DNA of 64,000 nucleotides from IMG/VR virus record IMGVR_UViG_3300027744_000008. One strand, written 5' to 3'. The notes under the pieces are model-generated. The model saw only the letters and a list, made by a program, of their open reading frames with translations. It ran no database searches and was not told the origin of the DNA. Positions within the stretch are counted from its first letter, which is position 1. Each line of letters opens with the position of its first letter. Positions 1 to 37,630 of the stretch are shown here, piece after piece. This DNA comes from a virus (Duplodnaviria > Heunggongvirae > Uroviricota > Caudoviricetes). A program made the position numbers and the translations under genes.

Positions 1-3000
1 GCTAACTCTGTATCATAGTCCATATCTTGAGGCCTAACTGATCCATCACTATTTGTTCTTCTAAATATAAAGCTATCACCAGAGGTTACAGTTAAAGTAT
101 TTGGAATACCAATAGACTTAGCAACTCCGTCACCTTCAAAAGTAGGCATGATTACATCGGGTTTTGTAAAAATAATTTGTCCCACATATTGCTCATCGTC
201 AATTCTTACGTAACGAATATTGTTCACTGCTCTATAATATATGTTTATCAACTCTGCTTGTTCAGGTACGTAAGGCAGGTCAACTGGGTATGTTTTATTT
301 TTAACAGTCATTGAGTCAATGTCATTAGATACTGTTAATAATGCACCATTAATTGTACTACTAACTGTTATGGACGGTATTGCTGTAAATGTACCTGCCG
401 GAAGGATTACGGTGTTTGCCGAAAGCCCAGAACTAGTATAAGTAAATTCATCGCTGTCTGTTATTGTTACAATTATTCCGTTTTCTGTATATTCACTGTA
501 ATTAGCACCAGCATTTAAATTAATTTTGTTACCAGTTACCAGTCCATGAGAACTTTGGGTTTTCACATACACTGTTGGAACTGCGGCTGAAACAAATCCC
601 GAAGGTTCAATAATAGTCGGGTCTGATCCAAAAATTCCTGGGTTAGTTGGATATGCTAGACAAACGGTTGACAGTGTTCTAACTGTAGCAACAAATTCCC
701 CGTTATAATCTTCATTGTCATTGCCACTGACTGTAAATTTATATCCTTGCGCCAACGGAACTCCTAAGACTGCAAAAGAGAATGTTGCAACTGCTGTTGC
801 ATTTATTGTTTGGCTAGTCACAGCCTGTTGTTGATTTACAGTATAGGTTCCTAGTCCACCTGCGCCAGTTCCTAAAGAAAGAATATATGTACCTTCTAAA
901 ACGCTGCCGCCGGTAATTAATTGTCCCACAGAAAGTGTTCCAGAAGTAACGCCAGTTACCGTTAAAACATATCCCGGATTAGTTGTTGCTCCATCATTAA
1001 TTGTGCCTACAACTTCAGCTGGCCCGACTGGAGAAGTTGCTAGTGTAACCGTGACAGTTGGCGAGGTTGATACCGTTAACGGAACTTCATCACCCGGATT
1101 TATATATGTAAATTCATAGTCATTTCTAACTGCATAAATTTCAATCCCAACTTGATTAAAGTCTGGAAGGTCAATACCTTCAATATTAATTATTTGACTA
1201 GAAGCTAATCCGTGTGGAATATCAGTTGTTATCACACTAATACCTTCAAGACTTAATCTTCTAAAAGAAGTAATCTTACTAGTACCAACTCGTTTTATAG
1301 AGTATATTGAGACAGGACTTTTAGGCGCAACCGATGCACAATAATAAACACTGTCAGTGGCAATGCCGCCGATCGAATTACCAGTAAATTCAAGTAATCG
1401 ACCTGTTTCAATATTAGTTGTAGAACTTACTTCAATAATATTTCCATAGCTGTATGTTCGAATAGCCGTAGTATTGATCTGTTTACTGTTAGCTCCCACT
1501 GTGACAATGTAGTCATCAAAGTTAGGATCTTGAGAATCCCACCCGTCTGAGAACCAAGGAGTACTTCCCCAACCTTGGGCAATGTTAAATCCAATTCCAG
1601 TAATTTGCACTCCGCCGTAGTCGACGCCGCGCATTAGTTGTCCTAACTGTTTTCCAAATTCATTAGTTCCTGGTTTGTAGTACCAATTGATTCTGTCAGC
1701 TGCTGACAAATAATTAAAATCTTTTAGATATGTAATCTTAATAACAGACCCCTTGGCCGGTGCTGTCAAGAAGGTTAGTAATCCATAGTAACTTGTATAT
1801 CCTCTAGTTGTGGTCTTTTTGCTGGACAGTATATAAGAGTTTCTAAGAGCAGAAACTTCGTCAATTAGTACTTCCGAGTCGACTAGGTTAATACTTGGAC
1901 TCCATCTTAGGATAAATTGAGTTTTACTTCCGGTTCCAACAAATGCAGAATCTGTGTCGCCTGATTCAATTTCTTGTAGTTCAGTTATATAATATTGGCT
2001 AGTAATTCTGTCAAATTTAATTCTTGTATAGTTTGATCTCACAAGACTGTTGCCAATCCTAGCACTTGCACTTGCACTTACTCCATTTGAATCAAGACCA
2101 CCTTCAAATGACACTGACGGAACTGTTAGATAACCGCTACCTTTCTTAATTAAAGATATCCTTGCAACTTTTCCGTTAGTTAAGTAGGCTCGAGCAGTGG
2201 CTCCGGATCCGCTGTCACTTTGTATAATAACCACAGGAGTGCTTATATACCCAGAGCCTCCATCATTAATAATAATTTCTGTAATTTGAAATCCTATATT
2301 ATCAGTCCAGTTCTTCCAAGGATATTCGTTAATAAATGCAGAATCACTGATTATTTCATTATCTATTACCGTTGCTGGAACTGTGGTAAATCTACCATTT
2401 TCATAGATCGGAGGTAAATCAAAATCAGTTACAACTGATCGAGCAACATCTGTTTTAGAATATGAGCTAACAAATTCTCTAATTTTTGTTCTGTAAGGTT
2501 TAACTTCAGAAATGTAAGATTCAAAATCAGTTAAATTGTCATTATTATAGGTAACTGTTTCTTTTAACTCGCCTACGTTATGTTGCGCTTTAATAAAACT
2601 TGTTTTAAATGCCCAGTCAACATACAGTTGTTCATAATGAACATATCGTAAGCAAGCAAAAAATGTATTGAGATACTCTTGTTTTAAATCGTCAGTTAGA
2701 ATATTATTTTTAATTGATTCTAAAATAATTCTTAATTCAGTCTCTGCTGAATTATCATAACCAGTACCATCATAAGAGGGACCATCATAACCAATACCAG
2801 TATTTCTAAAACTGTAAAGTGTATTTAAAAACTGTATAGTCCCCTTTTCTCTACCAACTACTTTATAAGATCGAGTATAGTCTGATGAAGTACTGGTTGC
2901 ATATTTTTCTAATAATAACCAACCACTAGTACCTACGTTTTTAATTTTAACCAGTTGCCCAATTTCTACAGTCACTTGATTAAGTTCATAGATAGAATTT

Positions 3001-6000
3001 AAAGAAAAGTTTGCAGGAGTAAATTGACTGTATCCATTATTATAAAAATCTACATAATCCCAAAATTTTCTAACATCATACCCTTGACTCTTTACTCGTG
3101 TCCAAGTAAGAGAGTCCGGGTCATAAGAATAAATGCTCCATCTTTCAAGGGCCTGCGAATCAAAATGTACAAGTGCAGAAAATGGTCTTAAAGTTAAAAC
3201 AGTATCATCTGTATAACCTTCACCAGAATTTTCTACAATAACTCCACTGATTCCGCCGCTGACATTTAACACTGTTTTAATTTTAGCATCAATTCCAGTT
3301 CCAGAAATTTCTAGATATGGAGCATAGACGTATCCCGATCCAGGATTATTAATAATGATTTCTGTTATCCTACCATCAATAATTATAGGAGTTAAAGAAG
3401 GATATCTAACAGCGGTTACCCCAATGGTTCTTAATTCTATGTCGTAATCTACAACTACATCGTACTGTCCAAGAATTTTATTTGGTTCTAATTCGTAGCT
3501 ATCCAACGCGGTAATATCTTTTTCTTCAACAATAATATGTTGTAGCATTGTTGCGTTTACACGCTCAAAGTATTGTTTTAGTGCTTCAAATCTGTTAACA
3601 AACATGCTCTGGCGGGGTCGATTTTCAATGCCGTAACGTAATTTAGGGGGTAGCTCAACGTCTGGAACTCGTCTACCATTAGCGTCTTTTCCGCAGAGAC
3701 TGTCTATCCATTTAGTTTCAATAGATGTTGGTATGTTAGTGTTAATACTATTGCTGATCAATTTCCATTGATCATGACTATTAATTGTATAATCATCAAC
3801 TACCCAATACTCGACATATAAGTTAATATCAGTGTGTTCTAATAAATTTTCTACATTGACTAAACTAAAGGTATTTGTTCCAGTAAATGCAACATACTTG
3901 TAACCGTATCCTTTAGGATCAGCTATAAGATTAGACACATCTTTTGCAGATAACTTTCGTCCTTTGACTTCCGGAATAAGAACTTTATTTTTTACCCAGA
4001 AGTAATAAGTGTTTCTAAAACTCTTGGAAACATTATCATATGTACGTTTAATACTATATGCAGAATTTCCATATAAACTAGTACCGCTAATACTAGCAGT
4101 GAATCCCTCTTCAGTATCAGCAATAGCATCCCAATCGTCAGGAAGAAGACTTGACGCTACCCATTCGTAGATATCGATACTGGCTGTCTCGTAGAGTGTA
4201 TTCCAGGTAGAGTTTCTATAAACACTGTCACCATTATAACTGTCTAAAAACTTAGCTCTTGTCAAGTTCCACCATAACGTACCAACATTAGCCGTAGTCC
4301 AGGCTTGTCCGTCATCGATGTTTAGTGTTTCAGTTCCAACAGTGTAGATTGCTGGATCATAATATGTTTTAAATTTAATTTCTTGTTCGGCTATGCCTGC
4401 AATTTTTCCTTGTATTGGATCAATTACATCAAGATAAGAAATTAATTTCTGTGTCTTTTTATTGTACAAGAAAATTTGTTTAATTTTACGTAAGTCAATT
4501 TTGTCAGTTTCTGTCCGTGTAGCAGTCCAAGAATAAACATTTGGTACCTTGTTGTAAGAATAAATCTTACCTGAAGTAGTATATGTGGCATCAGTTGCGT
4601 TAGATGCACTAGCAATAATATAATTGTTTGCAGCTACTAATTCAATACCGTAATCATCATTATTAACATTAGTAGTTGTTAAACTTTCAGCAAACACCCA
4701 TTTAGTAGAATATCTATCATAGACGTCAATCCTTCCAGAGTCAGTGACAGTTGAACCATTTTGTATAGTATCACCGTTGGCACTAGAAATTACAAGAGTT
4801 TCATCATTGTTCATGAAGGCAACTTTTGCGCCATATCCTTCAGATCCTTCTGGTAGTCTACTTGTTATAGTTTGATATACGGTATAAGAATCGTTAACCA
4901 GTTTATAGATAGTAACACTTCCTTGATTAGTGCTAGTAGTTTTATTTCCTACAGCAATATATGTTCCGTCGTTTGACACAGTAACGCTATAATCTGCAGA
5001 GGTTGCTAATGATATATCATCAATTAATGTATCATCTGCTGAGTATACAAATATTTTTCCAGTGCCGTTACCGTAGGCTGTGACTGCAATAGTTGATCCA
5101 TCTTTAGATGTAGCAACTGTATTTCCAAAATAATCCGCGGCTGCTGCGGATGACCCGAATGAAACGCCCACAGCAGTCCATTGCAGGATATCATTCTCAA
5201 CAGTATAGTTAAACTCGTAAAGTCTGCCAGCAGCATTGTTTAACTCGGCAGCAACAATTAGTTTATTATCATCTGCAAATTTTACAGTTGATCCAAACTT
5301 TTCGTCGGCAGCTACATTAGGTGATAAGATAACTCTGTATAATGAATATTCATTAGCGATGTTAAGTTTATATAAACAAACTATACCTTGATTATCAAGT
5401 CCACTAGTTTTAGCAACATATTTTAAACAATTATTCCCATGCATTTTATATTCAGTATTATCATAACCAGTAATCAACTCGTGTGATGGGATATGGCCTG
5501 CATCAGAAAATTCACTGTTAACAACCACTGTCATTTTACCAGTGTCGTCTGTCATAGCATATGAACCACCGGGCACAGTAGGAATACCAAAAGTATTCCC
5601 ACCTAAGGTTTCACTAATTGTAATTATTGTGGCACTATAAATGGATTTAATATAATAAGTAGTTGTTGGATCTATTCCACCAAACGAAGATCCAAAAAAT
5701 CGTAATCTCATTCCTACAACCATACCGTTAGTTGTACCAACCGTAATGTATCCTTTATCAATACCGGAAACTTGAGGTGTAGTTGCAGTGGCCACTGTGG
5801 TAAGATTTCCAATGGTGGCAGTTAAAGTAGCAGAAGGTACATCATATTCAGTCCATTCTGCTAAAATAAAATCGCCCTCAGTTGAAGAATTAACTGTGCA
5901 TTTATACAGTACATGGTCATATAAAACTATGTTATTGAGAACATAGGTTTCATTAGTTTGATAGATTCCTTGATATTCGATATCAAATTGAGCAGTTGTT

Positions 6001-9000
6001 AAAGTTAAAGCTGCACCAACACTGTCTTCTACATCAGGATCATTTATATCAGCTGTGGCACTAATAGTAATTTTATATTCGTTAACTAGAGTCTTTACAT
6101 AATACGGACCTACACTTGATACTAAATTGCCAAATGCAGTGCCATTGAGTACTACCGGCATACCTATATGGATGCCGTCTGTGCTAGTAAGAGTTATTTG
6201 ATTTGTGCCGCTGACCGTAGACACCACTGTGGCTGTAACGTGCGGTACTGCTTGATAATAATTTATAACATTACCACCTTGTGGTACTCTAACATATAAA
6301 TTATCGGCGATTGCAGCACCTGTGGCATTAGAGTTAGGATCTGAGTCAAACGATAATGAAGATCTAACTATAGTATATTCAGCTTTGTTTTCACCGTCTT
6401 TTGATAGTATATTTCCCGACTCGGGAGATCCAATGGCTAACCAATTTTTATCATTAGATATTGAGATACTATGTCCAAAGGATCCTAGAGGGGTATCGTG
6501 CCAAAACGCATTAGGTGGATCATATGCTGACACATAATTAAATGTTAAATTAATATTTTGATTTCTTGTCCAAGAGGAACTATAGCCAGCACGATTATAA
6601 ATTACAACACTATTTTTAGCGGTAGATACTGCAAGTGTAGATGCCGCTGGGTCAATAGCTAGAACCTTGCCGAATTCTAACCCGTTAGCAGAATCTTTAT
6701 TTTGTATGTTACTAGCTGCTGAATAAACTAGATCGTACTCATAAACAGCCCATTTGCCTTGTCCATTATTGTCAACCCACAGTAGTTCGTTATCTTTAAT
6801 CTTTTTAGGAATTTCTACATTTATATCATCGATGTTGTCTATCTTTTGACTGTCAAAGTAATATACTTTAATCTTATCATCATAGACTATCACTGTTGGA
6901 AAGTCAGCAATCGTTGCTGTTACATTAATGATGTCGCCAACAATACTATCAATTTTGTAAAATCCTTGTACGTCGGTTATACCAGTTAAACCTAGATAAT
7001 CACCTTCTTCTAAATAATTTACTGAATCTACTGTTATCGATAAAGTAGTATCTGTATACTCTAATAGAGAAACACTACTTTCTGTATCAGTGATCCTATA
7101 GATATTCCAATAGACTGATGGATTTTCAAAAGCTGTCCACACATAATCACCTGGAGAAAACTCAGTGACATCGTATGTTAACAGGTCAGCTAGAGTATCC
7201 ACATTGGCTGCAACTTCGTCTATTCTAATATAACCGGGAGTTCTTAGATAAGGACTGTAATTATTATTAATTGGCCACGGATTTGAATTGTAGCTCATTG
7301 GTTTTAAGTAGACGTCGTTAGGCGTTTGTCTAATTACAAAGTCAACTAGGTTAGAGTCTATGTTATTAACTAGCTCAAACGCCTGCGGTTTGTTTTTAAA
7401 TAGGCTTTCGTCTAATTCAAACTCAATTTGTTCAAACGTATCAATAGCACCATACTGTCCTACACGAACAGCCCATTCTTCAAAGAACGTGAGACTTTCT
7501 TGATTATCAGCACTTAGTACATCAAATAATTTATTAAGAACATTCTGAGTACCTTTTTCAATAATCATCCCTTGATAAAACTTATACTCACTAATATCGT
7601 CTTTAATAATATTTTCAAGATACTGACGTTTCTGATAACCTATCAAATGTTGTGCAATTTTTTGTTGTCCTACATCAAAGTTATCACTGTCTAAACTATA
7701 AAAATCAGTAAATTGTTCTGCTTTATATGACCAGTTAGGCAGTAATCTAGATGTAGGTTTTTTAGATAATTTAACCCAGTCTTCACTTACAAAATCACTT
7801 GTTCCAATCAATTTGCTAGTTGCGCTGTAGTAAAACTCTTTATACTTAACAGTATCACCTATATTATAGGCTATCCAAGATTCCCAATCTTTTATCACTG
7901 CTTGATCATAGATGAAGCCGGGAATATTAAATCCGCCATTCCATCCAGTTGATACATAACTTAGTACTTTTATTTTTTCTTGTCTGTAACCTGTACGTGG
8001 ATCATACAACGTGTCATTAAATAATGTTGAATTATCTAATAATATCACATGTTCTTTTTGCACAAAATAAAATGTTGCTCCGTATATCCCATCGCCGGTT
8101 GTAGTATAAGATGATTGGTTATCATCTCTATAAGAATTTAAAAAATCTTCATCTAATTTAGTGCCGTCTACTTTAAAAAATTCATATACATTAAATTGAT
8201 CTTTAATATCATCAATAACTGATAATTTAGAATTAATAATTATAGTGTTAGCCGATGGGCTTAATGCTAGAACACTTGCACCAACTGTTGATAATCCGTC
8301 TAGTTTAGTCCAATTATTTTCTAAAAATAAATCGCTAGCATCTATGGCCACCTCTGCCTTGTAATAATCGCCATCAAACTTTACAATCTCCCCTGCTTGA
8401 TAACTATCGGTTGGTAACCAATCTTCCCATTTTTCTACGCCGCTTGACCAATTCTGAGTGGTCCAGAATAAAAATTCTTTAGCACTAGTTACCCAATTAC
8501 AAATTTCTCCTATGTTTGCATTAAATTCATCAAATACAAAACCTTGATCTTTTAGATATTCTCCGTACCCTACTAAAAAATCTACAACTTCTTGTATTGT
8601 TCTAAATTTAGTACTGTATGCAGCCGTGATAGGAGTGGTCCGATCCCATGCAGTTCTAATAAGGACTGTTTTGCCGCCGTTAATAGGAAGTGAGGGTAAT
8701 GAGCTATAATTTAAAGGATTAAATGTATCATTTGAAGTATGTGTTAATGATGCCCTATAATAAGTAGTGCCATACTTAACTATTTTTCCGCTGGAGTACA
8801 ATTGATTAGGTGCCCATTCAGTAAAAGATTCACTGATGCCGCCTACGTTTATGCTATATCCGGGCGAGGTCCATCCATAATAGTAGAAGTAGGGACTAGA
8901 TTTGCTATACCCTTTTACTTCAAATCCAGTTGATAATTTTGTTATAATTACACCACTGTAAACTAACTTCTTTATAGGACTAGAAGAATTTAAAAATACT

Positions 9001-12000
9001 GAATAATTTTCTTGAGGAACATAAATTCCACTAACTGCTGTAGGAGATTTTGAATCTAACAGTATATTAAATCTTTCTTTTTCAGTAAATCCTCCAACAC
9101 GATAAGATAACTGCATCTTGCTATAGAGTAAATCATACTTGTACTGATCTAAAGATCGTTGATTGTCGTGTTGAATATAGTCAACAATGTAATTTACAAG
9201 TCCGGCAGTTTGCACTCTTTCAGTGTCGGTGTAGATGCTTGGAATAATAATATCTTCCAAACGAAGTCTTAACTGAGTGTCTTTATAAACTATTTGATTA
9301 GACACATCTCGATAAATTCTTGAACGATCAAACAATACACCCATAACTTTAGCAGGATATGTTAGTAAAAGAGTTGAAATTATACTAAAAGAATAATACG
9401 AACTTCTGCGCCACGCACTTTCTATTGGACTAACATCTCCAAATATAAAATCTTGTCCTGTTATTTCTGTAACAAGGCCGCTGGCTAGATTGTTGTCTGT
9501 AGGGCTAACAATATTCCCGTCTTGATCAACTGGCAAATAGTTAGTCAAATAAGGTTTAACGTATTTTGGATTTCGATACACTGGTTGTCCTGGAACCTTA
9601 ATTATACCTTCGCTAATATCTTGCCACATAACCTTGTTATCCGATGTATAAGGTGCTGGACCATATTGTTCAACCCACCAAGACGGCACAATACTAAATC
9701 CCAACATTTCCCACGGACATATATTGGGTCTATCAGTGTCATATATCCAACGATATATGCCTCTCCAATAACCTGGTAATTCTCTCCCATCTGGAGCAGA
9801 TAATCCTCTATAATTAAAAGTTAAAGGATTATACTGATCGTACGATAAAGGTTTTGAAAAATCTCTATTAATCAAGGTAGTCCATTGATAGAAAGAAGGT
9901 GCTAACACTTTATTAAATTCATCTAAAGAATAATCACCAACTTGACTATAACGTGGTATTAAATCATTAACATCAAAGATATCAGTATTATAATTTACTT
10001 TTATATTGTTAAAAATTCTTTTTTCTAATTCTAAAAGTAGATCATCTCTATAGTCTCCATAAGCCAAGACTATGCTACCGTCATGCCCCTGGATAACTTC
10101 TCTAGGTGTTAAAAGGCTAGTGTCTAAGTATTTTTTAGGCTCAAATTTTGGCCACATTCCTAACTTAGTAGGTGTAGCCGGAACATAACTGCCGTCTGTA
10201 CTTTCATATTCTACAATAGTGATTGTATCATCGTTGGCTACCACTGCGCTGTTAGTTAATACTATAAACCCATCAGAGTGAAATGTGTAGTCTATTCCAT
10301 ACAATAATTGATTACTATTGATATAAACTAGTACAGCTTTAGAAGATAAAGTATCTAAACTATATGTTTCAGTCAATGGATATGTTTTAGTTCTATAGTC
10401 AACTACTGTTATGTTTGTAGTAATAGCTGGTCCAGTTGGAATCATATCACTAAAATAATAAGACGATATCTTAGGTTTATTCTTATTAATTTCGGTTAAA
10501 ATTAAATCAACGAACGGAACGGTATCTGTATCAATTCCTAGATTTTCTGAGATGTTTATAAAATTACGTTTAAATGCACCGTAATCGTTTCTTGCTTGCT
10601 CCAAGGCTTTAAGAATATTATTTGTTTTATTAGTAATATGATAAAGAGCTAGAGGCAAAGCCCCTTCATGTTGTACAAATCTTGTACCATAAGGACTAAC
10701 ATTGCCTAAATCTCTTAGATTGCTTGCGCCAAGATATTCACCGTTAAAATTATCTAGATTATCTATAATCGAATCTACATGATCAATAACTTCACCTAAT
10801 GTAAACTCAACAGGGTTTTCATTCATTGGATTATTTTGAAGATTTATAGGAAGCTCGTAATATCCGTTTGAATTTTTTACTTGTGAGGAAAAAGTTTTTA
10901 ATGTTATAACATCGGTTGCTTGATAATCAATTCCGGCAGCCGTCATAATGTCTACATTAAAATAGACATACTTAAATCTAGTACCGTTTTTAATTTCCCA
11001 ATATTTTTGATCTAATCTTTTTCCATTAATATAAACCCTAACTTCAAGATCAGCAAGGGCAGTTATATTATCGTAAACATCTATATCAAAATTGTTTGTC
11101 TTATCAGGGTCTCTATAAATTCTTACCACTGGTTGATAACGGATAACACTGCTACGTTCCCAACCAGACACATATGATATGTCAGTTAAACTATTAAATT
11201 TCACTAGTTTTCCAACAGCAATGGATTGTGTTGTTACATCAATAACTCTTTTGTAAACAAACGTGTCGCTTAACAGGTTAAAATTAAAAACAATGTCGCC
11301 AATATTATTAATATTCTTGTAAGATAATGGAAATCCTAACTTACTGTCGTTAGTGCCAGTGCCTATTTTATAAGAAAAAAGTTTTGTTCCGATAAAACTG
11401 GTGCTGTCATATACAGTGATATCTCCATAACTATAACCATCCGCATCAACTACGTCAAACAACGGTGCTTGATTAACTCCGGTTTTTTGTTGCCCTTTAG
11501 TCCAAGTTGTGCCGTTATAATAATATGTCAATCCTTGATTATTAACACCAAATTTAACTATTATTGATTGATTTTCTATGGGTATAGCTTCTTCAACTAA
11601 ATGTATCTGACGTTGAAAAGATTCTCCCGGAGGAGTGACTCTAACAAAGTCTACCCTATAAATTTTATTTTTTACAAGTATGTCAGTGTCGGCTAAAAAT
11701 AGTACACGCTGTCCTTGAGTTAGATTAATACCATCAACAATATACCCAGTTTGCCCTTCAATATTTGAAAATACATCTGTAGTAAACGTATCTATGAGAT
11801 CAACGTCAATAGTAGCTTCTAATCCAAAATTATATAATTTTATACCAGCTTCAAACTCGATAATAGGACGAAGCGCCCTAGCATCTTGATCTAAACTTGC
11901 AATTTGTCCATTAACTGTATAACTTGTTTCGATTACACTTTTATGATACCATCGATTGTTACGTGCCCACGGGTTTCTATCTTTACTTCCTCGATTAATA

Positions 12001-13130
12001 ATAACATAGTCTTTAGATGAACTATAGGTTGTAGCAACATCAAATGAGTACTGATCAAAAGGACCATCATCGAATGGTACATCAAAACTATCTGTACTAC
12101 TAGTAATAAGTTCTAGATCGTTTTCAAGAATTAATTGTATTCTTGTACCAACACCTTCTACATAATACTGGCCAGTTTTATAATTTTCAGGAGTAACATT
12201 ACCTTTAAATTGCAATTTCATTCCATTGCTTAACTGAGTACCGTCAGATAATTTGAATGTTTTTTTACCTACTACTTCGTTCTCAACATCAATCGCAGTA
12301 TTTTCTTTAATGTCATATATTTTAAAAATCCCTCCTAGATTAGGATCGTTCTCACTAACATAATAAAGAACATTGGGGGCTTTTTCAGGAATTTTTATTG
12401 TGATCGTGCCGGACTCTACCGCGTATGTAGTATCATTCCCCCAATTGTATCGATCAACCACACCGGCAGTTCGATCAGTTTTGATGCTGAATGGCTCGCC
12501 TGGACTGTCAATTTCAAAGTGATATGTTTGGCCTCTATACAGTTTTAAAGGCGGATTTCTATCTAACCCGTTAGGAGTAAGAAGATATTCTTTATATCCG
12601 CCAGCGTCATCTATCTTTACTGTATAGGTGCTCTCAATTTTTTGTTGTAACCCATAGACATTAATGACCGGAGGTCCGTATGGTAGCCAGTAATATTGTT
12701 GGAAGTTAACAAATTTGTCCCAGTCCACATGAGGATTCCAAGAGTACAGCTCTTGGCGATTTAGACGTTCATGATTATCGATATTTGCGCCGAACACCCC
12801 TAGTTGATTTATATAATCAATATAGTCTTTATAAAATTCTACATTACCCAGTGTATCTGTTGACACTAGGCTTGGCTCTAGCTGATAATTTTTACGCTGT
12901 GTATTAACTGCTTCAACAAAAATATCGTTAGTAGTAGATGATTTAGCATTTCTTCTACCAATAAACCCTGTAACTTTTCTTACGGCGCCTGGCTGAGTAA
13001 GTTGGTCAAGAGTAGCTTGAACAAATTTTTTATTAGAATCAGTTCTATAATATCTTGGCAATAGTTCAGAATTTCTTCTTTTACTATTTTTTGAAATTGG
13101 AACTGGATTTTCAGATTGATCGTTGTTCAT
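1..13130 (-). CDS. Giant virion structural protein (>4,370 aa), probable baseplate wedge/fibre-attachment protein; 3' end lies beyond the left edge
   Basis: ATG at 13130 with GGAG 6 nt upstream, directly after the gp6-like gene. It translates [48 protein letters not shown]..., and the same frame is still open at position 3 (...[22 protein letters not shown]). The ORF track lists no minus-strand fragment starting here, consistent with no in-frame stop in the window. It contains FG-GAP-like segments ([19 protein letters not shown] near 6480) and WxxxxxYxxGxxV motifs ([22 protein letters not shown] near 8420). Confidence 0.85.
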
Positions 13131-22495: not shown

Positions 22496-23320
22496 ATGAC
22501 TAAAGTCAATTACCTAAATAATAAAGATATATTAGAAGAAATACACCGCTCAAAAAATACATTTTCGAGCTATACAAAGCCAGAATACAGTCGATACGAC
22601 CTTATACTGCCCAGCGTGGACAAGATTAACATACGTACAATCGCTGAAGCAAAGCGGGCTAAAGCCAAGAGACTCGGGCATCAAGAATACGATCGAAGAA
22701 AGACCGCTGGCGAAAAAGTCAAACAAGCAGATTGCGAGGTTGACTATAAGAAAATTGCCAAAACAGATGTGGTATTTCGTATTATGACCTTTGAGCATAT
22801 ACCGTTAAACACTGTTAGAAAACGTAATCCAAAGACCATAGCTGATGGACGGGATAAAGTAAACTTCCCTCCGTACCAACATTGGAAATACAACGAAACC
22901 GATGAACTAGAGTGTGTGGGTAAAAGTCATTGGAAGGGCGACATGGACACTGGTGCCTTTAATAAAGATCACGGACAGATAACAAACACCTTAGCACGTA
23001 TGTTTATCAAGCTCTGCGAACGATATGCTACACGTGGAAATGTTAGAGGATACACATATAATGACGAAATGCGGGGACAAGCCATTCTACAGCTAACGCA
23101 GATTGGTCTACAATTTGATGAATCGAAGTCAGATAACCCGTTTGCCTATTATACTGCCGCAGTTACCAACAGTTTTGTAAGAATTATTAACATAGAAAAA
23201 CGTAATCAAGGCATTAGAGACGACATATTAGAAATTAATGGTATGAATCCTAGTTACTCTAGAACCAACAGTGGAGAGTACGAGGCTGGATTGAATAGAT
23301 TTAACGAAGGTACTGAATGA
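22496..23320 (+). CDS. Late-transcription sigma factor, gp55-like
   Basis: N-terminal YLNNKDILEEI and RGYTYNDEM...FDESKSDNPFAYYT...NSFVRIINIEKRNQ motifs; upstream of gp47/gp46 as in T4-like phages. Confidence 0.8.
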   Translation: MTKVNYLNNKDILEEIHRSKNTFSSYTKPEYSRYDLILPSVDKINIRTIAEAKRAKAKRLGHQEYDRRKTAGEKVKQADCEVDYKKIAKTDVVFRIMTFEHIPLNTVRKRNPKTIADGRDKVNFPPYQHWKYNETDELECVGKSHWKGDMDTGAFNKDHGQITNTLARMFIKLCERYATRGNVRGYTYNDEMRGQAILQLTQIGLQFDESKSDNPFAYYTAAVTNSFVRIINIEKRNQGIRDDILEINGMNPSYSRTNSGEYEAGLNRFNEGTE

Positions 23321-24327
23321 GTTTATTCAAAAAAATTGCCTGTTTCACAGACATACACTTTGGTCTTAAGAGTAATAGTCATACACATAATCAAGATTGT
23401 TTAGATTTTGTAGACTGGTATATCGCCAAGGCTAAAGAACAAGGATGTGATACTGGAATCTTTATGGGAGACTGGCATCATAATCGTAATAGTCTTAATA
23501 TTACTACCATGGACTATAGTCTTAGAGCTTTAGAAAGGCTGGGTCAAGCGTTTGATCAGTTTTATTTCTTTCCAGGTAATCATGATTTGTATTATAAAGA
23601 CAAACGAGACATTCATTCTGTAGAATTTGGCAAGTATATTCCAGGCGTTACTGTTGTTCATGAACCTACAACCGTAGGTGATGTACTACTTTGTCCGTGG
23701 TTAGTAGGTGATGAGTGGCGTAAAGTAGAAAAGTCAAAGGCAAGATATTGCTTTGGGCACTTTGAATTGCCATTGTTCTACATGAATGCCATGGTACAGA
23801 TGCCGGATCACGGTGAGATACAGCTCAAACATTTTAAAAACTTTGAACTAGGCTTTAGTGGACACTTCCACAAACGCCAGCAAAGAGAAAATGTTGTCTA
23901 TATCGGTAATGCTTTCCCCCACAACTATGCAGATGCATGGGACGACGAGCGAGGCATGATGGTGTTAGAATGGGGCGGACAGCCTGAATACTTCACTTGG
24001 GATGATCAACCTAAGTTTAGAACTATTAAACTTAGCGAACTGATCGATGGTGCTGATACCATAATTAAATCTAAAATGCACTTCCGTGTAACATTGGATA
24101 TTGATATTAGCTATGAAGAGGCGAGTTTTATCAAAGAAACTTTCATGAAAGACTACGATATTCGTGAGCTAACCCTAGTTCCCGAGAAGAAAGATGTTGA
24201 AGTTCACACTAACATTGACATACAAGCCTTTGAAAGTGTCGACGAGATTGTCAGTAAACAGATTATTAACATACAAAGTGAACAATTTAAAGCCAATACA
24301 CTGTTGGCAATATACAATAGCCTATGA
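23317..24327 (+). CDS. Recombination endonuclease subunit gp47 (Mre11/SbcD-like)
   Basis: Metallophosphoesterase motifs DIHFG, GD, GNHD, GHFE and SGHFH. Confidence 0.92.
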   Translation: MSLFKKIACFTDIHFGLKSNSHTHNQDCLDFVDWYIAKAKEQGCDTGIFMGDWHHNRNSLNITTMDYSLRALERLGQAFDQFYFFPGNHDLYYKDKRDIHSVEFGKYIPGVTVVHEPTTVGDVLLCPWLVGDEWRKVEKSKARYCFGHFELPLFYMNAMVQMPDHGEIQLKHFKNFELGFSGHFHKRQQRENVVYIGNAFPHNYADAWDDERGMMVLEWGGQPEYFTWDDQPKFRTIKLSELIDGADTIIKSKMHFRVTLDIDISYEEASFIKETFMKDYDIRELTLVPEKKDVEVHTNIDIQAFESVDEIVSKQIINIQSEQFKANTLLAIYNSL

Positions 24328-26108
24328 TTCGCATTAAGGATTTAACAGTTAAAAATTTTATGAGTGTTGGTAACCAGACTCAAGCAGTGAACTTTTGTCG
24401 AGAACAACTAACTCTTGTCTTAGGTGAGAACTTAGATCAAGGAGGAGACGACAGCGGAAGCCGTAACGGCACTGGTAAAACTACAATTATCAACGCATTG
24501 AGCTTTGCACTCTTTGGTCAAGCACTGACTAACATTAAAAAAGACAATTTGATCAACAAGATCAATGTTAAAAACATGTTGGTCACGCTGACATTTGAAA
24601 AAGACGGGCAAGAATATCGCGTTGAACGTGGTCGTAGACCTAATATTTTAAGATTCTTTGTTAACGATCAAGAGCAGGCCAACGAAGAAACAGACGATGC
24701 ACAAGGCGACATGCGTGAAACGCAGAAAGACTTGGATGATATTCTAGGCATGAGCCACGATATGTTTAAACATATTGTTGCGCTTAATACCTATACTGAG
24801 CCGTTTTTATCCATGAAGGCAGGCGAGCAACGTGAAATTATTGAGCAGTTGCTGGGCATTACCTTGCTGTCTGAGAAGGCAGAATCTCTTAAAGAGCTTG
24901 TTAAGACTACTAAAGATGATATTATACAAGAAACTGCACAGATAGAAGCTACAAAAAAAGCAAATGCAAAAATCGAAGAGGGTATAGCAGGTTTAAAACG
25001 TAGACAAGACTTATGGTTAAGGAAACGACAGGAAGACATTGAATCGTTGGCGCTGCAATGGTCTGAATTAAATCAATTAGATATAATAACAGAACTACAG
25101 TCACACAAAGACCTAACTGCGTATAATCAAAAGCGTAAAACAATTGACGAACTTAATAAACTTATTGCTCGGTGCGTTGCCGACGAAGCAAAAGAAACTA
25201 AACAATGTGAAAAACTTAAAAAAGAAATTGTAGATTTAGAAGATCATAAGTGTTATGCTTGTGGACAAGACATGCACGACGAGAAACATGAACAAGTTCT
25301 AGCAGACAAACAAAAGGCATTGCAAGAAGCGGCACTACAGGCACTGTCTACTAACACTCAGTACATAGAAAATACCGATGCGCTTACTGTGTTAGGGGAA
25401 CTTGGTCTTCAACCTACAGTGTTTTATAGTCGAGAAGAAGATGCTATCAATCATAGAAATACAATTCAAAATCTTGAACAGCAGATAACTGCCAGAGAAT
25501 CTGACGAGGATCCCTATCAAGAACAAATTGACGAGCTAAGTGAGACTGCCCTACAAGAAATTCTTTGGGATAAAGTAAATGACTTGAATAATCTTAAAGA
25601 GCATCAAGAATTTCTACTAAAGTTGCTGACCAGTAAAGATAGTTTTATTCGTAAAAAGATTATTGATCAAAACTTAGCCTACTTAAACAATAGACTAACA
25701 TTCTATCTTGACAAGATGGGCTTGCCACATAGTGTAACGTTCTTAAATGATCTCACTGTGGAAATTACGCAGCTTGGACAAGATTTAGACTTTGATAACT
25801 TGTCCAGAGGTGAACGCAACAGACTTATCCTAGGATTAAGCTGGAGTTTCCGTGATGTATGGGAAAGTTTGTATCAGAATATTAACCTGCTGTTCATTGA
25901 CGAGCTCATAGACAACGGGTTAGATGCCAGCGGTGTTGAAAGTGCGCTGGCAGTATTAAAGAAAATGGCACGTGAACGCAACAAAAACATATATTTGATC
26001 AGTCACAAAGATGAATTAATTGGTAGAGTAAACAACGTTCTTAAAGTGATTAAAGAAAACGGCTTTACCAGCTACGAGCATGATCTTGAAGTAACAGATG
26101 AGCAGTAA
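24324..26108 (+). CDS. Recombination ATPase subunit gp46 (Rad50/SbcC-like)
   Basis: KNFMSVG, Walker A NGTGKT, zinc hook CYAC, signature LSRGE, Walker B LFIDE, H-loop ISH. Confidence 0.93.
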   Translation: MIRIKDLTVKNFMSVGNQTQAVNFCREQLTLVLGENLDQGGDDSGSRNGTGKTTIINALSFALFGQALTNIKKDNLINKINVKNMLVTLTFEKDGQEYRVERGRRPNILRFFVNDQEQANEETDDAQGDMRETQKDLDDILGMSHDMFKHIVALNTYTEPFLSMKAGEQREIIEQLLGITLLSEKAESLKELVKTTKDDIIQETAQIEATKKANAKIEEGIAGLKRRQDLWLRKRQEDIESLALQWSELNQLDIITELQSHKDLTAYNQKRKTIDELNKLIARCVADEAKETKQCEKLKKEIVDLEDHKCYACGQDMHDEKHEQVLADKQKALQEAALQALSTNTQYIENTDALTVLGELGLQPTVFYSREEDAINHRNTIQNLEQQITARESDEDPYQEQIDELSETALQEILWDKVNDLNNLKEHQEFLLKLLTSKDSFIRKKIIDQNLAYLNNRLTFYLDKMGLPHSVTFLNDLTVEITQLGQDLDFDNLSRGERNRLILGLSWSFRDVWESLYQNINLLFIDELIDNGLDASGVESALAVLKKMARERNKNIYLISHKDELIGRVNNVLKVIKENGFTSYEHDLEVTDEQ

Positions 26109-26352
26109 GCATGACGACATTATGAGTGCGGTTCGAACATACTTCGAAGCAAATCAAAAGTGGGAAGTAGAGAGGACCAAACGGTCTTCTATACAGCTAC
26201 GGCAAAGTCTAAGTAGGATTAGAGAATTATGTTCAGATCAACGTGTAATTGTGCGTGAATGGGCAAGGATTAAAGAGGCAGAACTAGCAGAAAGAGAAGC
26301 AAATCGACAAGCTCAGAAGAGACAGCAAGCAGAGGACAGTGATGATAACTAA
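26098..26352 (+). CDS. Small helical protein, possibly a divergent Hc1/histone-like nucleic-acid-binding protein
   Basis: 84 aa, helical, with YFEANQKW...KRSSIQLRQSLSRI resembling phage Hc1-like small proteins; overlaps the gp46 stop. Confidence 0.4.
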   Translation: MSSKHDDIMSAVRTYFEANQKWEVERTKRSSIQLRQSLSRIRELCSDQRVIVREWARIKEAELAEREANRQAQKRQQAEDSDDN

Positions 26353-26357
26353 TTGCC

Positions 26358-26783
26358 ATGACATGGTATTTCCAAAATGAAATTATTGAATCGCTGCCCG
26401 AAGATTGTGTTGGATTTGTGTATCTGATTACAAATAATATCACAGGCAGAAAATACATAGGCAAAAAATTAGCCAAATTTGCAAAGACCACATATAAAAC
26501 AGTAAAATTAAAAAACGGTAGCAAAAAGAAAAAGAAGATTAGATCTAAGATTGATTCAGATTGGCGCGATTACTACGGGTCAAATCTAGAATTAAGCAAA
26601 GACGTAGACACACTAGGCAGAGAAAATTTCAAACGAGAGATAATGTTTTACTGTAAAAGTAAATCAGAATGTTCTTACATAGAGGCCAGAGAACAATTTA
26701 CACATAAAGTTCTAGAATCACGCGATTACTATAACGGACAAATTTCAGTCCGTGTACATGGCTCACACATATTAAAATCATAG
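26358..26783 (+). CDS. Stand-alone GIY-YIG superfamily nuclease domain protein (Seg-like catalytic domain only)
   Basis: GFVYLITN...RKYIGKK, YYGS, conserved E (YIEARE) and N (YYNG); lysine-rich insertion KTVKLKNGSKKKKKIRSK; no C-terminal DNA-binding domain. Confidence 0.8.
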   Translation: MTWYFQNEIIESLPEDCVGFVYLITNNITGRKYIGKKLAKFAKTTYKTVKLKNGSKKKKKIRSKIDSDWRDYYGSNLELSKDVDTLGRENFKREIMFYCKSKSECSYIEAREQFTHKVLESRDYYNGQISVRVHGSHILKS

Positions 26784-27220
26784 GCTCCTAAGCGGTATAA
26801 GCAAGCACAAGCTAAAGTCGTGTGCCCACGCCAACTCGATAATAAGAGGGACGGAAATCTCTAGCCGCCAGAGTACTCAATCACTACCCGAAAGGATGAT
26901 GATAGCAAAGCCCTTGCTGTTTGATTGTTTTAGAAATAACAGGCGAAATGAGGGTGAGAAACCCACGTTTGCTGGCATGTTAGCGTATGCAAGTAGACCG
27001 CCGTCGTAATAAAGACTGAGCTCGAGGTACCGGACGACCGCCTCTGCAATGCTCTAACGCTAGGTGACATAAGTGCAACTCAGATAATGTCCATTTCTTT
27101 GCCCGGTCAGGGCAAAGTGTGACTGAACAATCTAGATAATATCTTAAGTGCTTCGCACAATTACTTCTAGATAAATGCATTGAGCCTAGCGAAATGCATG
27201 TGAGCGTGAGCTCACATTTA
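26784..27220 (+). ncRNA. Candidate large structured non-coding RNA, family unassigned
   Basis: About 440 nt with no credible ORF in an otherwise gene-dense genome, more GC-rich than its flanks, with more than 10 helices including several with G-U pairs, GNRA loops and a 6-bp pseudoknot (see findings). Confidence 0.65.
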
Positions 27221-27227
27221 ATAAATA
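27221..27227 (+). promoter_or_regulatory. Putative late promoter ATAAATA
   Basis: Motif 20 nt upstream of the ATG at 27248. Confidence 0.55.
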
Positions 27228-27247
27228 AACTATAATCCACTATTCCT

Positions 27248-28249
27248 ATGAAAATTAAAGACATTATCTCTGAAGCAGGACCTACTAGCTATGTGCCAGC
27301 TAGTCCTGGAAGTTCTATTGTTGTCCCTACTTCACTGAGTCCTAATGGGTCTACTATTCCTGTTGCTGCTAGCGGTGGTAGTGCAGCACCTGCTGCTAGC
27401 GGTGGTAGTGCAGCACCTGCTGCTAGCGGTGGTAGTGCAGCACCTCGTCCAAGAGCTCAACGTCAATCAGGTAAACGTGCCAGTGCTCTTAGACAGCAAC
27501 GAATCAAAAATGCAGTTATTAAGATGTCAACTATTGGCAGTGGTCGATACAAGAATATGATAAACATGAAGTATTCGAAGTTTACCGCTACAATGATTAT
27601 TCCTCTTAGACTACTTCAATTTTTAGGCCTTGGAGAGATGATAGTAGATTTTGGTACCACTGTTTCTACTCTGAGAACAATGAAGGAGTTACCAGAAGGT
27701 GATCCTGGCCATATTACTGAACAAGAATATGATGATAATTGGCGACAGGCTTTAGAATTATTGGCCGTACAAATAGCTGCCAGTGCGGCACTTCCTAGAT
27801 TAATACAGGCCTTTACCCTAGGTAAATGGGTCACTAGAATTTTAGGATTTTTAGGTACAACAGCAACATGGGGCGCTACACTTGCAATATTTGTAGCATC
27901 TGAAGTGGCCATGATCGCTTTTCAAAGATGGTTAACTAGTCCAGAAGGTAGAAAACAACTAACGTATCTAATAGTGTATGTTATAGATCCATTGGCTACT
28001 TGGTTATATCCCACATCTTTTGTTGACAAGATAAAAGAGATAGTGGGTATAGAGACTAAAAAGACAGATGATAAGAAAAAAGATCCCAACGCACCTAAAA
28101 CAGATACTGGACAAGCAGCACAGCCTAAACCTCAGGGACAAACAGATACAACTATACCTACTGCTAACGTACCGCCGAGTTATGTAGGTAATCCTAACGA
28201 TCTAATGAAGCGCGATGAGCCAAAAGTTAAATTTGCGATGGACATTTAG
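27248..28249 (+). CDS. Hypothetical protein with hydrophobic helices; possible internal head/ejection protein
   Basis: 333 aa; N-terminus MKIKDIISE, low-complexity termini and several hydrophobic segments. Confidence 0.6.
   Translation: MKIKDIISEAGPTSYVPASPGSSIVVPTSLSPNGSTIPVAASGGSAAPAASGGSAAPAASGGSAAPRPRAQRQSGKRASALRQQRIKNAVIKMSTIGSGRYKNMINMKYSKFTATMIIPLRLLQFLGLGEMIVDFGTTVSTLRTMKELPEGDPGHITEQEYDDNWRQALELLAVQIAASAALPRLIQAFTLGKWVTRILGFLGTTATWGATLAIFVASEVAMIAFQRWLTSPEGRKQLTYLIVYVIDPLATWLYPTSFVDKIKEIVGIETKKTDDKKKDPNAPKTDTGQAAQPKPQGQTDTTIPTANVPPSYVGNPNDLMKRDEPKVKFAMDI
27365..27445 (+). repeat. Perfect 3 x 27-bp tandem repeat encoding (AASGGSAAP)3
   Basis: GCTGCTAGCGGTGGTAGTGCAGCACCT at 27365, 27392 and 27419. 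Confidence 0.95.
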
Positions 28250-37476: not shown

Positions 37477-37503
37477 TCAACATACCGAGAGGTTGTTAAT
37501 CAT

Positions 37504-37528
37504 AAAAGGCTCTTCGGAGCCTTTTTTT
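37504..37528 (+). terminator. Rho-independent terminator after the major capsid gene
   Basis: AAAAGGCTC-TTCG-GAGCCTTTT followed by more T; C(UUCG)G tetraloop typical of T4-like phages. Confidence 0.9.
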
Positions 37529-37535
37529 GTTGTGC

Positions 37536-37542
37536 ATAAATA
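37536..37542 (+). promoter_or_regulatory. Putative late promoter ATAAATA
   Basis: Directly after the terminator and before the structured leader of 37631. Confidence 0.65.
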
Positions 37543-37550
37543 CATAGTAC

Positions 37551-37626
37551 GATTCACATGGTGTGAGTTTTATGCGGAAATCCAACCGCGTACAGCCTAG
37601 AACGCTGTTTTTCTATAAGGAGAAAA
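37551..37626 (+). promoter_or_regulatory. Structured 5' leader, four consecutive hairpins
   Basis: GATTCACA/TGTGAGTT, TATGCGG/CCGCGTA, CAGC/GCTG and TTTTCT/AGAAAA; the last overlaps the SD. Confidence 0.6.
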
Positions 37627-37630
37627 TAAA

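Follow-up and report, generated by a model that had tools for sequence, protein, structure and literature searches.

A long, pseudoknotted form of Polynucleobacter-1 RNA at the end of a gp46/GIY-YIG operon of a jumbo T4-like freshwater phage

Ornate RNAs of several hundred nucleotides (nt) with conserved folds, such as GOLLD and ROOL, are carried by phages and mobile elements, and their function is not known. The OMEGA/HEARO RNAs of IscB and TnpB are likewise large structured RNAs on mobile genomes, each adjoining the gene of a small nuclease. In ColE1, RNA II acts as the primer and origin RNA. For the origins of T4, a primer role of R-loop RNA is described in PMC3016281. The Polynucleobacter-1 motif was reported by Weinberg et al. 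in 2010 (PMC2864571), whose supplementary Stockholm alignment contains 16 sequences. In 11 of the 16 a 3' extension of ~150 nt follows the motif, consisting of a short hairpin, a long hairpin, a helix nesting an invariant GGUACCGG...ACCGCC hairpin, and an ACGCUA box that forms a pseudoknot with the loop of the long hairpin (PMC2864571). The motif is catalogued in Rfam as RF01718, with a model that ends at 141 positions, and a full-text literature search for the family name returned the discovery paper only. The plus strand encodes a long, pseudoknotted form of this RNA, ~430 nt in length, within the 464-nt gap without open reading frames (ORFs) at 26784-27247 of the window, which is the whole stretch of 64,000 nt analysed from IMG/VR virus record IMGVR_UViG_3300027744_000008. 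It is the last element of the late-sigma/gp47/gp46/GIY-YIG operon in the genome of a jumbo T4-like freshwater phage.

The 5' domain (26800-26930, plus strand) matches RF01718 over model positions 1-141 of 141 with 81.6 bits (gathering score 37). It is preceded by a junction or leader (AGGC..., (A/G)C(G/A)GU(A/U)A; 26782-26799, plus strand), which overlaps the stop codon of the upstream gene and is semi-conserved behind a GIY-YIG or PD-(D/E)XK gene. A strong match to a known Rfam family unrelated to the nuclease had been named beforehand, in the first-pass annotation made from the letters of the DNA, as an outcome that would refute the proposed RNA-protein system. It names the RNA without explaining it, because the family itself has no known function. 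The helices 26878-26883/26922-26927 and 26901-26908/26914-26921 and the CC-GAAA-GG hairpin drawn in that annotation are the helices of RF01718. The pairing of AGAGTA (26870-26875) with TGCTCT (27050-27055) proposed there is not supported and conflicts with two better-supported pairings: AGAG pairs with CUCU (26860-26863) in the Rfam structure, and GCUC (27051-27054) pairs with GAGC (27018-27021).

Besides RF01718, the Rfam scan of the gap at E ≤10 returned only a weak manA match and two weak chance matches to eukaryotic families. The manA RNA (RF01745) was rejected, with 19.3 bits in the window vs a gathering score of 55.2 and no match at E ≤10 in any of 12 relatives; cow-rumen-2, which scored 17.7-24.3 bits (cut-off 66) on the pseudoknot domain in 4 loci, was treated as sub-threshold. 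The RNA resembles GOLLD and ROOL in being large, complex, borne by phages and mobile elements and of function not known; the Rfam scans of the window contained no match to either, and there are no tRNA genes nearby.

The next ~135 nt (26931-27065, plus strand), including the pseudoknot, reproduce the helices and the pseudoknot of the 2010 extension in the layout of the SS_cons and SS_cons_1 lines of the supplementary alignment. This pseudoknot domain is composed of a hairpin (26952-26964), a long hairpin (26967-26998), a helix (27018-27021/27051-27054) enclosing the invariant hairpin GGUACCGG...ACCGCC (27024-27044), and a pseudoknot (26980-26985/27058-27063). The core of the RNA was already known, as RF01718 and the extension of 2010 with its pseudoknot; only what follows is new.

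Covariation was assessed on 41 non-redundant IMG/VR relatives against 500 shuffles and slid controls. In this set 84.0% of the cells were paired, compared with 74.8% in the shuffles and 37-42% in the slid controls; 34 of the 56 pairs changed on both sides, and the observed values were reached by none of the 500 shuffles. Compensation was found for all six pairs of the pseudoknot (94% of cells paired), for 10 of the 12 pairs of the long hairpin as changes on both sides, and for three of the four pairs of the GAGC/GCUC helix (92% paired). The GAGG/CCUC helix was paired in 99% of cells. The long hairpin, the pseudoknot, the GAGG/CCUC helix and a further hairpin at 27097-27117 had all been predicted in the first-pass annotation and are borne out by this set. 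The GGGT-GAGAA-ACCC hairpin, likewise predicted, forms in every row and is poorly aligned (52% paired). Less is left of the GGCG/CGCC helix, for which at most 3 invariant pairs were found, the fourth failing in 30 of the 41 sequences. The G-U pairs are located on the plus strand, and the minimum free energy z-score of the gap is -2.20 on the plus strand (equalled by 3 of 100 shuffles) vs -0.83 on the minus strand, in agreement with the structured plus-strand RNA called earlier. The invariant unpaired stretches are GGGAYGGAAAU and GGUACCGG...ACCGCC. Pairing of the 5' leader with the UAC bulge as a second pseudoknot was discarded, since inspection of the alignment revealed no covariation.

Conservation extends past the pseudoknot through a repeat (R1), a hairpin, a near-copy of the repeat (R2), a short hairpin and a two-hairpin tail. 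R1 (GUGAC...ACUC-AGAUAAU-GU; 27063-27090, plus strand) and R2 (GUGACUG...AUCU-AGAUAAU-AU; 27118-27142, plus strand) flank the hairpin CUUUGCCC/GGGCAAAG (27097-27117, plus strand), in which 91% of cells are paired and 4 of 8 pairs are compensated. The short hairpin GUGC-UUC-GCAC (27148-27158, plus strand) has all four pairs changed on both sides and 72% of cells paired in a gappy alignment. Tail hairpin T1 (stem, GA, GC, GNRA-type loop, GC, GAA, stem; 27177-27197, plus strand) is a conserved motif also present in bacterial versions, occurring in 66 of 79 relatives compared with 138 of 3030 background windows. Tail hairpin T2 (27198-27217, plus strand) has 8 bp and a GUGA loop followed by UUUAAU; the hairpin noted earlier at this position is the second tail hairpin of the relatives, in which a hairpin with a U/A-rich tail also stands behind T1. 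By its form T2 may be a terminator, and the consensus terminator scan of the window did not call it.

Since conservation reaches the T1/T2 tail, the RNA unit can be placed at about 26782-27220, which agrees with the length of ~440 nt first estimated. The catalogued 141-nt motif is the front third of a ~430-nt RNA, and the continuation to ~27220, some 155 nt beyond the extension of 2010, is newly described here. Its new features are the parallel twin direct repeats, two further hairpins and the conserved two-hairpin tail. With Polynucleobacter-1 as described in 2010 the RNA shares the 5' domain, the hairpins and pseudoknot of the 3' extension, and the freshwater habitat.

R1 and R2 vary in parallel and not as complements. 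At one position the 41 sequences have A/A in 21 cases, G/G in 19 and a discordant pair in 1; at another, A/A occurs in 31 sequences and G/G in 8. The 10-nt cores have a mean within-sequence identity of 7.6/10 vs 6.45 in 2000 shuffles, none of which was as high, with relatedness among the sequences uncontrolled in this comparison. The same module is found in bacterial islands in the form ACUC-NNNN-AAAG, hairpin, AUCU-NNNN-AAAG, where the tetramer (AGCG, AUCG, AGAG, GGAG, ACCA and others) is equal between both copies in almost every locus shown; one locus (L214) differs at one base. Parallel change of R1 and R2 suggests that both are read by one partner, which evolves along with the individual element. 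As for the guide-like variable segment that the first-pass annotation proposed to look for, the only candidates are these twin 4-7-nt segments; no longer guide and no target were detected, and a search for a complement of the segments in cis found none. A tandem ATTATCTA at 10749-10766 of the window was rejected as a pairing target: it is internal to a giant ORF of the minus strand, whose mRNA contains it in the same sense. That ORF, of at least 4376 amino acids (aa), occupies 3-13130 on the minus strand and runs off the window end.

Lake metatranscriptome contigs of three runs span the junction between the nuclease ORF and the RNA (X3, 26450-27089; X4, 26448-26887; X1, 26737-26996); such contigs give no RNA ends, strand or level, and the parts they leave uncovered prove nothing. 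They fit co-transcription of the nuclease gene and the RNA. Bridging of the junction in all three runs, together with the occurrence of the RNA family alone elsewhere, favours the second option of the first-pass annotation, an independent phage RNA co-transcribed with the nuclease.

The nuclease gene (26358-26783, plus strand) encodes 141 aa, and the largest non-coding gap does begin at its stop codon, as first noted. The sole Pfam match of the protein is PF19835 SegE_GIY-YIG (E 1.7e-32, 112.7 bits vs cut-off 25), which fills residues 3-129 and leaves no C-terminal DNA-binding domain, so that the earlier description of a minimal GIY-YIG protein holds. It also matches phrog_447, which is labelled 'NAD synthetase' through an annotation error present in phage records. 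The GIY, YIG, Arg, Glu and Asn columns, which are taken to be catalytic, are invariant across 22 homologs with identity down to 56%. In the AlphaFold2 (AF2) model (predicted local distance difference test score, pLDDT, 79.6; residues 119-141 of low confidence) the Lys-rich insertion pointed out at the first reading forms a beta-hairpin at residues 40-66. The best structural match of the model in a VIA wide search, which is independent of Foldseek, is the I-TevI catalytic domain (Z 7.1, root-mean-square deviation 2.7, 77 residues aligned), followed by PD-T4-3 (Z 6.7), UvrC-N (4.9), T4 EndoII (4.4) and HIGLE (3.5); all five top matches are GIY-YIG enzymes. Comparison with PDB sequences gave no significant match by single sequence (best E 0.27) or profile, and Foldseek of the model against PDB gave nothing at E ≤0.001. 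The protein is like the I-TevI catalytic domain, T4 Seg proteins and T4 EndoII in its SegE_GIY-YIG domain, motif residues and I-TevI-like predicted fold. It differs from the Seg/I-TevI-type homing endonucleases in having no C-terminal DNA-binding domain and in being vertically conserved instead of sporadic: 56 of the 59 gp46-first loci with room downstream have the gene, as do 69 of the 72 RNA-first loci, and it is conserved about like gp46 (54-93% vs 54-92% identity). It is a normal minimal GIY-YIG nuclease that this phage group passes on vertically. A PD-(D/E)XK protein of the 'RusA-like resolvase' family can replace it beside gp46, which may hint at a role in recombination or repair.

Gene and RNA follow each other in most relatives. 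Among loci found through the nuclease, RF01718 lies directly behind the gene in 17 of 20; among those found through the RNA, the GIY-YIG gene stands upstream in 69 of 72 (67 abutting, 2 with insertions), the RNA starting at the stop codon in 67 of the 72. The 59 gp46-first loci divide into 51 with gene and RNA, 5 with the gene and no detected RNA (in 4 of these the gene is at the locus end), 2 with neither, and 1 with a PD-(D/E)XK gene and the RNA. Three GIY-YIG loci (L014, L073 and L252) have no detectable RNA behind the gene although room exists. The fixed order is synteny among relatives of this phage lineage.

Elsewhere, RNA and nuclease are each found alone. A 327-kb phage record rated 92% complete (G001) carries 4 RNA copies and no GIY-YIG homolog. 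In three loci (L096, L092 and L310) PDDEXK_15 occupies the nuclease slot; in L096 a 173-aa PDDEXK_15 protein (2.5e-29; phrog 'RusA-like resolvase') ends 10 nt before the RNA, and the twin repeats of this locus are identical to those of the window despite the replacement of GIY-YIG. The order PDDEXK, RNase H, RNA is found in L092 and G001. In all 14 bacterial island loci tested, the neighbours of the RNA are DUF6641 and a short integrase, and a nuclease is absent. Conversely, the GIY-YIG family is present in 510 cultured phage records in other contexts, and RF01718 is absent from the three of those genomes that were searched (3/3). RF01718 was not found in Melnitz-3, phiM12, P-HM1, PA5oct or Atu_ph07, and the RNA had no blastn match among 50,697 phage records. 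The first search pattern for the RNA recovered a single locus (L082) with no RF01718 match and was discarded as chance. Because each occurs without the other outside the lineage, the RNA is not tied to the nuclease, and it is likely self-standing.

In G001 each RNA copy is placed within an ORF-poor repeat unit of ~1.15-1.2 kb. The units are 77-83% identical, and all 4 have tandem TTGACA-N17-TACAAT promoters and repeat arrays; three of them are far from the gp46/nuclease locus with no such enzyme adjoining. A scan for tRNA and tmRNA found none in the window or in these units. The 12-mer CTAAAAGATAAT was rejected as RNA-specific, since it is spread genome-wide in G001, where the four units contain 30 of its 139 copies. 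Copies of CTAAAAGATAAT often form inverted pairs ~26 nt apart.

About 660 IMG/VR stretches hold the core of the RNA, and the 5' domain is also present in forty bacterial stretches (Polynucleobacter, Limnohabitans, Comamonadaceae and others), 14 of 14 tested passing the Rfam cut-off. Lake-water metatranscriptomes and the bacterial copies in Polynucleobacter, Limnohabitans and Comamonadaceae place the RNA in a freshwater Burkholderiales setting. In the islands it lies between a divergent DUF6641 gene and a downstream gene for a 188-aa integrase-family protein; the middle domain is different there, and the twin-repeat and T1/T2 modules are the same as in the phage. The slot of 22 DUF6641 island loci is occupied by the full RNA in 7, by its 3' part only in 4, by a small HUH-type Rep-like ORF in 3 and by other ORFs in 8; the RNA and the Rep-like ORF never occur together. 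DUF6641 was not detected in the phage records G000-G002, a search in which the control gave no match either. The Rep-like ORFs (L347, L354 and L367; 149-182 aa, LHxHxAxG motif) are divergent from DUF6641 at the slot held by the RNA in other islands. They match PF23343 at 27.9 and 21.7 bits vs a cut-off of 27.8 and are mutually homologous (E 2e-6 and 1.5e-22).

The best guess as to function, unproven and put forward tentatively, is that the RNA is self-standing and acts in replication initiation. Read-through of the operon would produce the RNA, with the transcript ending at the tail hairpins, and the co-varying twin repeats would be read by a co-evolving partner, either protein or nucleic acid. 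The transcript could serve as an origin or pre-primer RNA, like the R-loop RNAs at T4 origins or RNA II in ColE1, and could help to initiate DNA replication where it is encoded or close by. An origin or pre-primer role is favoured because of the replication/recombination operon, the RNase H gene adjoining it in G001 and L092, the four promoter-driven copies of G001, the exchange for a Rep-like gene and the T4 R-loop precedent. With the known primer and origin RNAs it has in common a transcript of several hundred nt, a host-type promoter (in G001) and adjoining replication/recombination genes and RNase H; in the islands, its slot can hold a Rep-like gene instead.

Several points weigh against a part in replication. 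GC skew of G001 tracks gene direction and gives no signal at the four RNA copies, the RNA sits at a convergent gene junction, and no sigma-70-like promoter was found directly upstream of it in the window. A terminator-like T2 would release the RNA instead of leaving it paired with DNA. The tertiary fold is more elaborate than known primer RNAs need, and both this far greater elaboration and the terminator-like tail set the RNA apart from them. The exchange for Rep concerns 3 of 22 loci only, with Pfam scores at or below the cut-off (27.9 and 21.7 bits).

A stable trans-acting RNA released from the 3' end of the operon, which would bind or sequester protein or RNA as a scaffold, decoy or sponge with no replication role, is an alternative only slightly less probable than the replication role. 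The large conserved fold with its invariant unpaired stretches and the terminator-like tail are compatible with such an RNA, as are the four G001 copies with host-type promoters, which suggest high dosage, and the sharing of one 5' domain between phages and bacterial islands of freshwater Betaproteobacteria. However, the way in which the twin repeats change in parallel implies that the partner evolves along with each element and is not a fixed host factor, and on inspection the sequence does not contain enough GGA-type motifs for a CsrA-type sponge.

It is rather improbable that the RNA is a 3'-UTR (untranslated region) element of the nuclease operon, acting in cis only to stabilise or terminate the mRNA or to tune nuclease expression. 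The start of the RNA at the stop codon in most RNA-first loci, the contigs joining ORF and RNA, and the tail hairpins at the end of the unit would all be explained in this way. The four G001 units with promoters of their own, three of them remote from the gp46/nuclease locus, would not, nor would the bacterial copies, which are divergent from the nearest gene; and ~430 nt with a pseudoknot far exceed the needs of a stabiliser.

A still smaller chance is given to the RNA being the partner of an adjoining minimal DNA enzyme (GIY-YIG, PD-(D/E)XK or the short tyrosine recombinase of the islands), with recognition via the twin variable segments, a widened form of the nuclease proposal in the first-pass annotation. 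In support of a partnership, the syntenic phage copy is always behind a small catalytic-only nuclease, the islands encode the 188-aa integrase-family protein downstream, and the twin 4-7-nt segments are alike within and different between elements in phages and islands, apart from the one-base mismatch of L214. Yet G001 has no GIY-YIG, three of its four copies have no such enzyme adjoining, the GIY-YIG family is widespread without the RNA, L096 with PD-(D/E)XK has the same twin repeats as the window with GIY-YIG, and the segments are too short for unique targeting. The proposal of the first-pass annotation that the RNA guides or scaffolds the nuclease is not supported, in view of this separability and the PD-(D/E)XK exchange with unchanged twin repeats. 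The OMEGA/HEARO analogy differs in further respects: the enzymes there are RuvC/HNH and here GIY-YIG, RNA and nuclease are separable here, and there is no long terminal guide, only the twin segments. Quite unlikely as well is a programmable recognition module, in which the twin segments would read two identical short sequences for the adjoining GIY-YIG, PD-(D/E)XK or 188-aa tyrosine recombinase.

The weakest explanation makes the RNA a 5' leader or riboswitch that regulates the downstream gene in cis. This was guessed already in 2010, when Table 1 of PMC2864571 listed 'cis-reg? y' for the motif, and it fits the start of a plus-strand gene at 27248 in the window. It is largely refuted and has scarcely any probability left, because in 14 of 68 loci the 333-aa ORF is absent and there is no co-oriented downstream gene, convergent orf74/baseplate genes ending ≤700 nt from the RNA, and because in 38 of the 68 a promoter-like ATAAATA stands between the RNA tail and the next gene. 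This ATAAATA, found at 27221-27227 (plus strand) in the window, always has an ATG-led ORF of at least 100 aa within 80 nt, with a background of 104 of 3252 windows. The T4 late promoter consensus, which it resembles, is TATAAATA. The downstream protein is also poorly conserved, and the position at the end of a jumbo-phage operon, the four-copy phage and the DUF6641-integrase islands argue further against a cis-regulatory role.

The window belongs to an 88-kb virus record with completeness rated 25%. Since the nearest cultured relatives of its gp46 are jumbo phages (PA5oct with 49.5% identity, then Phosso and Atu_ph07) and a protein identical to the 141-aa ORF is encoded on contigs of up to 320 kb, the genome is ascribed to a jumbo T4-like phage. 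Upstream of the nuclease gene, on the plus strand, lie a late-sigma-like gene (22496-23320), a gp47/Mre11-like gene (23317-24327), a gp46/Rad50-like gene (24324-26108) with AAA_23 and SMC_N matches, and an 84-aa ORF of no family (26098-26352), homologs of which are found at the equivalent position in some relatives. The order matches that of the annotated sigma factor, SbcD-like and gp46 genes in PA5oct and Atu_ph07; by synteny, the first two genes are presumably gp55 and gp47.

The gap between the 141-aa and 333-aa ORFs is the largest ORF-free stretch of the window. It contains a 94-aa antisense ORF (26980-27264), which was rejected as a gene, being not preserved in relatives (the equivalent frame in L096 has 48 aa); if it is counted, 196 nt of the gap remain, still more than the next-largest gap (154 nt). 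That second-largest gap, at 37477-37630, is the site of a match to freshwater-2 RNA (RF02980; 37552-37633, plus strand; 74.1 bits vs cut-off 49.9), a catalogued RNA of function not known. The 333-aa ORF (27248-28249, plus strand) is a facultative neighbour for which family scans were empty; it contains AASGGSAAP in three tandem copies, and its counterparts in relatives are 24-33% identical or absent. Beyond it are convergent minus-strand genes, among them one for a T4_baseplate family protein. In PA5oct, ~1.5 kb near the gp46 and RusA-like resolvase genes contain no annotated ORFs other than tiny ones and have a TTGACA-N17-TATAAT promoter. An exact 32-nt block and 126 nt of 82.5% identity connect this stretch with the published ncRNA004 region of the same phage (PMC7318152, Table 1); no link to the RNA of the window emerged from RF01718, blastn or nhmmer.

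A family that was named in 2010, and whose function is not known, is here extended from a front-third motif to a ~430-nt RNA, found both in jumbo phages of an abundant freshwater lineage and in small integrative islands of the bacteria that are likely to be their hosts. A nuclease guide and a riboswitch leader, both attractive at first sight, are made unlikely. The boundaries, the fully covarying pseudoknot, the co-varying twin segments and the island slot filled by either the RNA or a Rep-like gene provide handles for experiment. If the replication reading is true, giant phages would possess a ColE1-like RNA-based initiation module.

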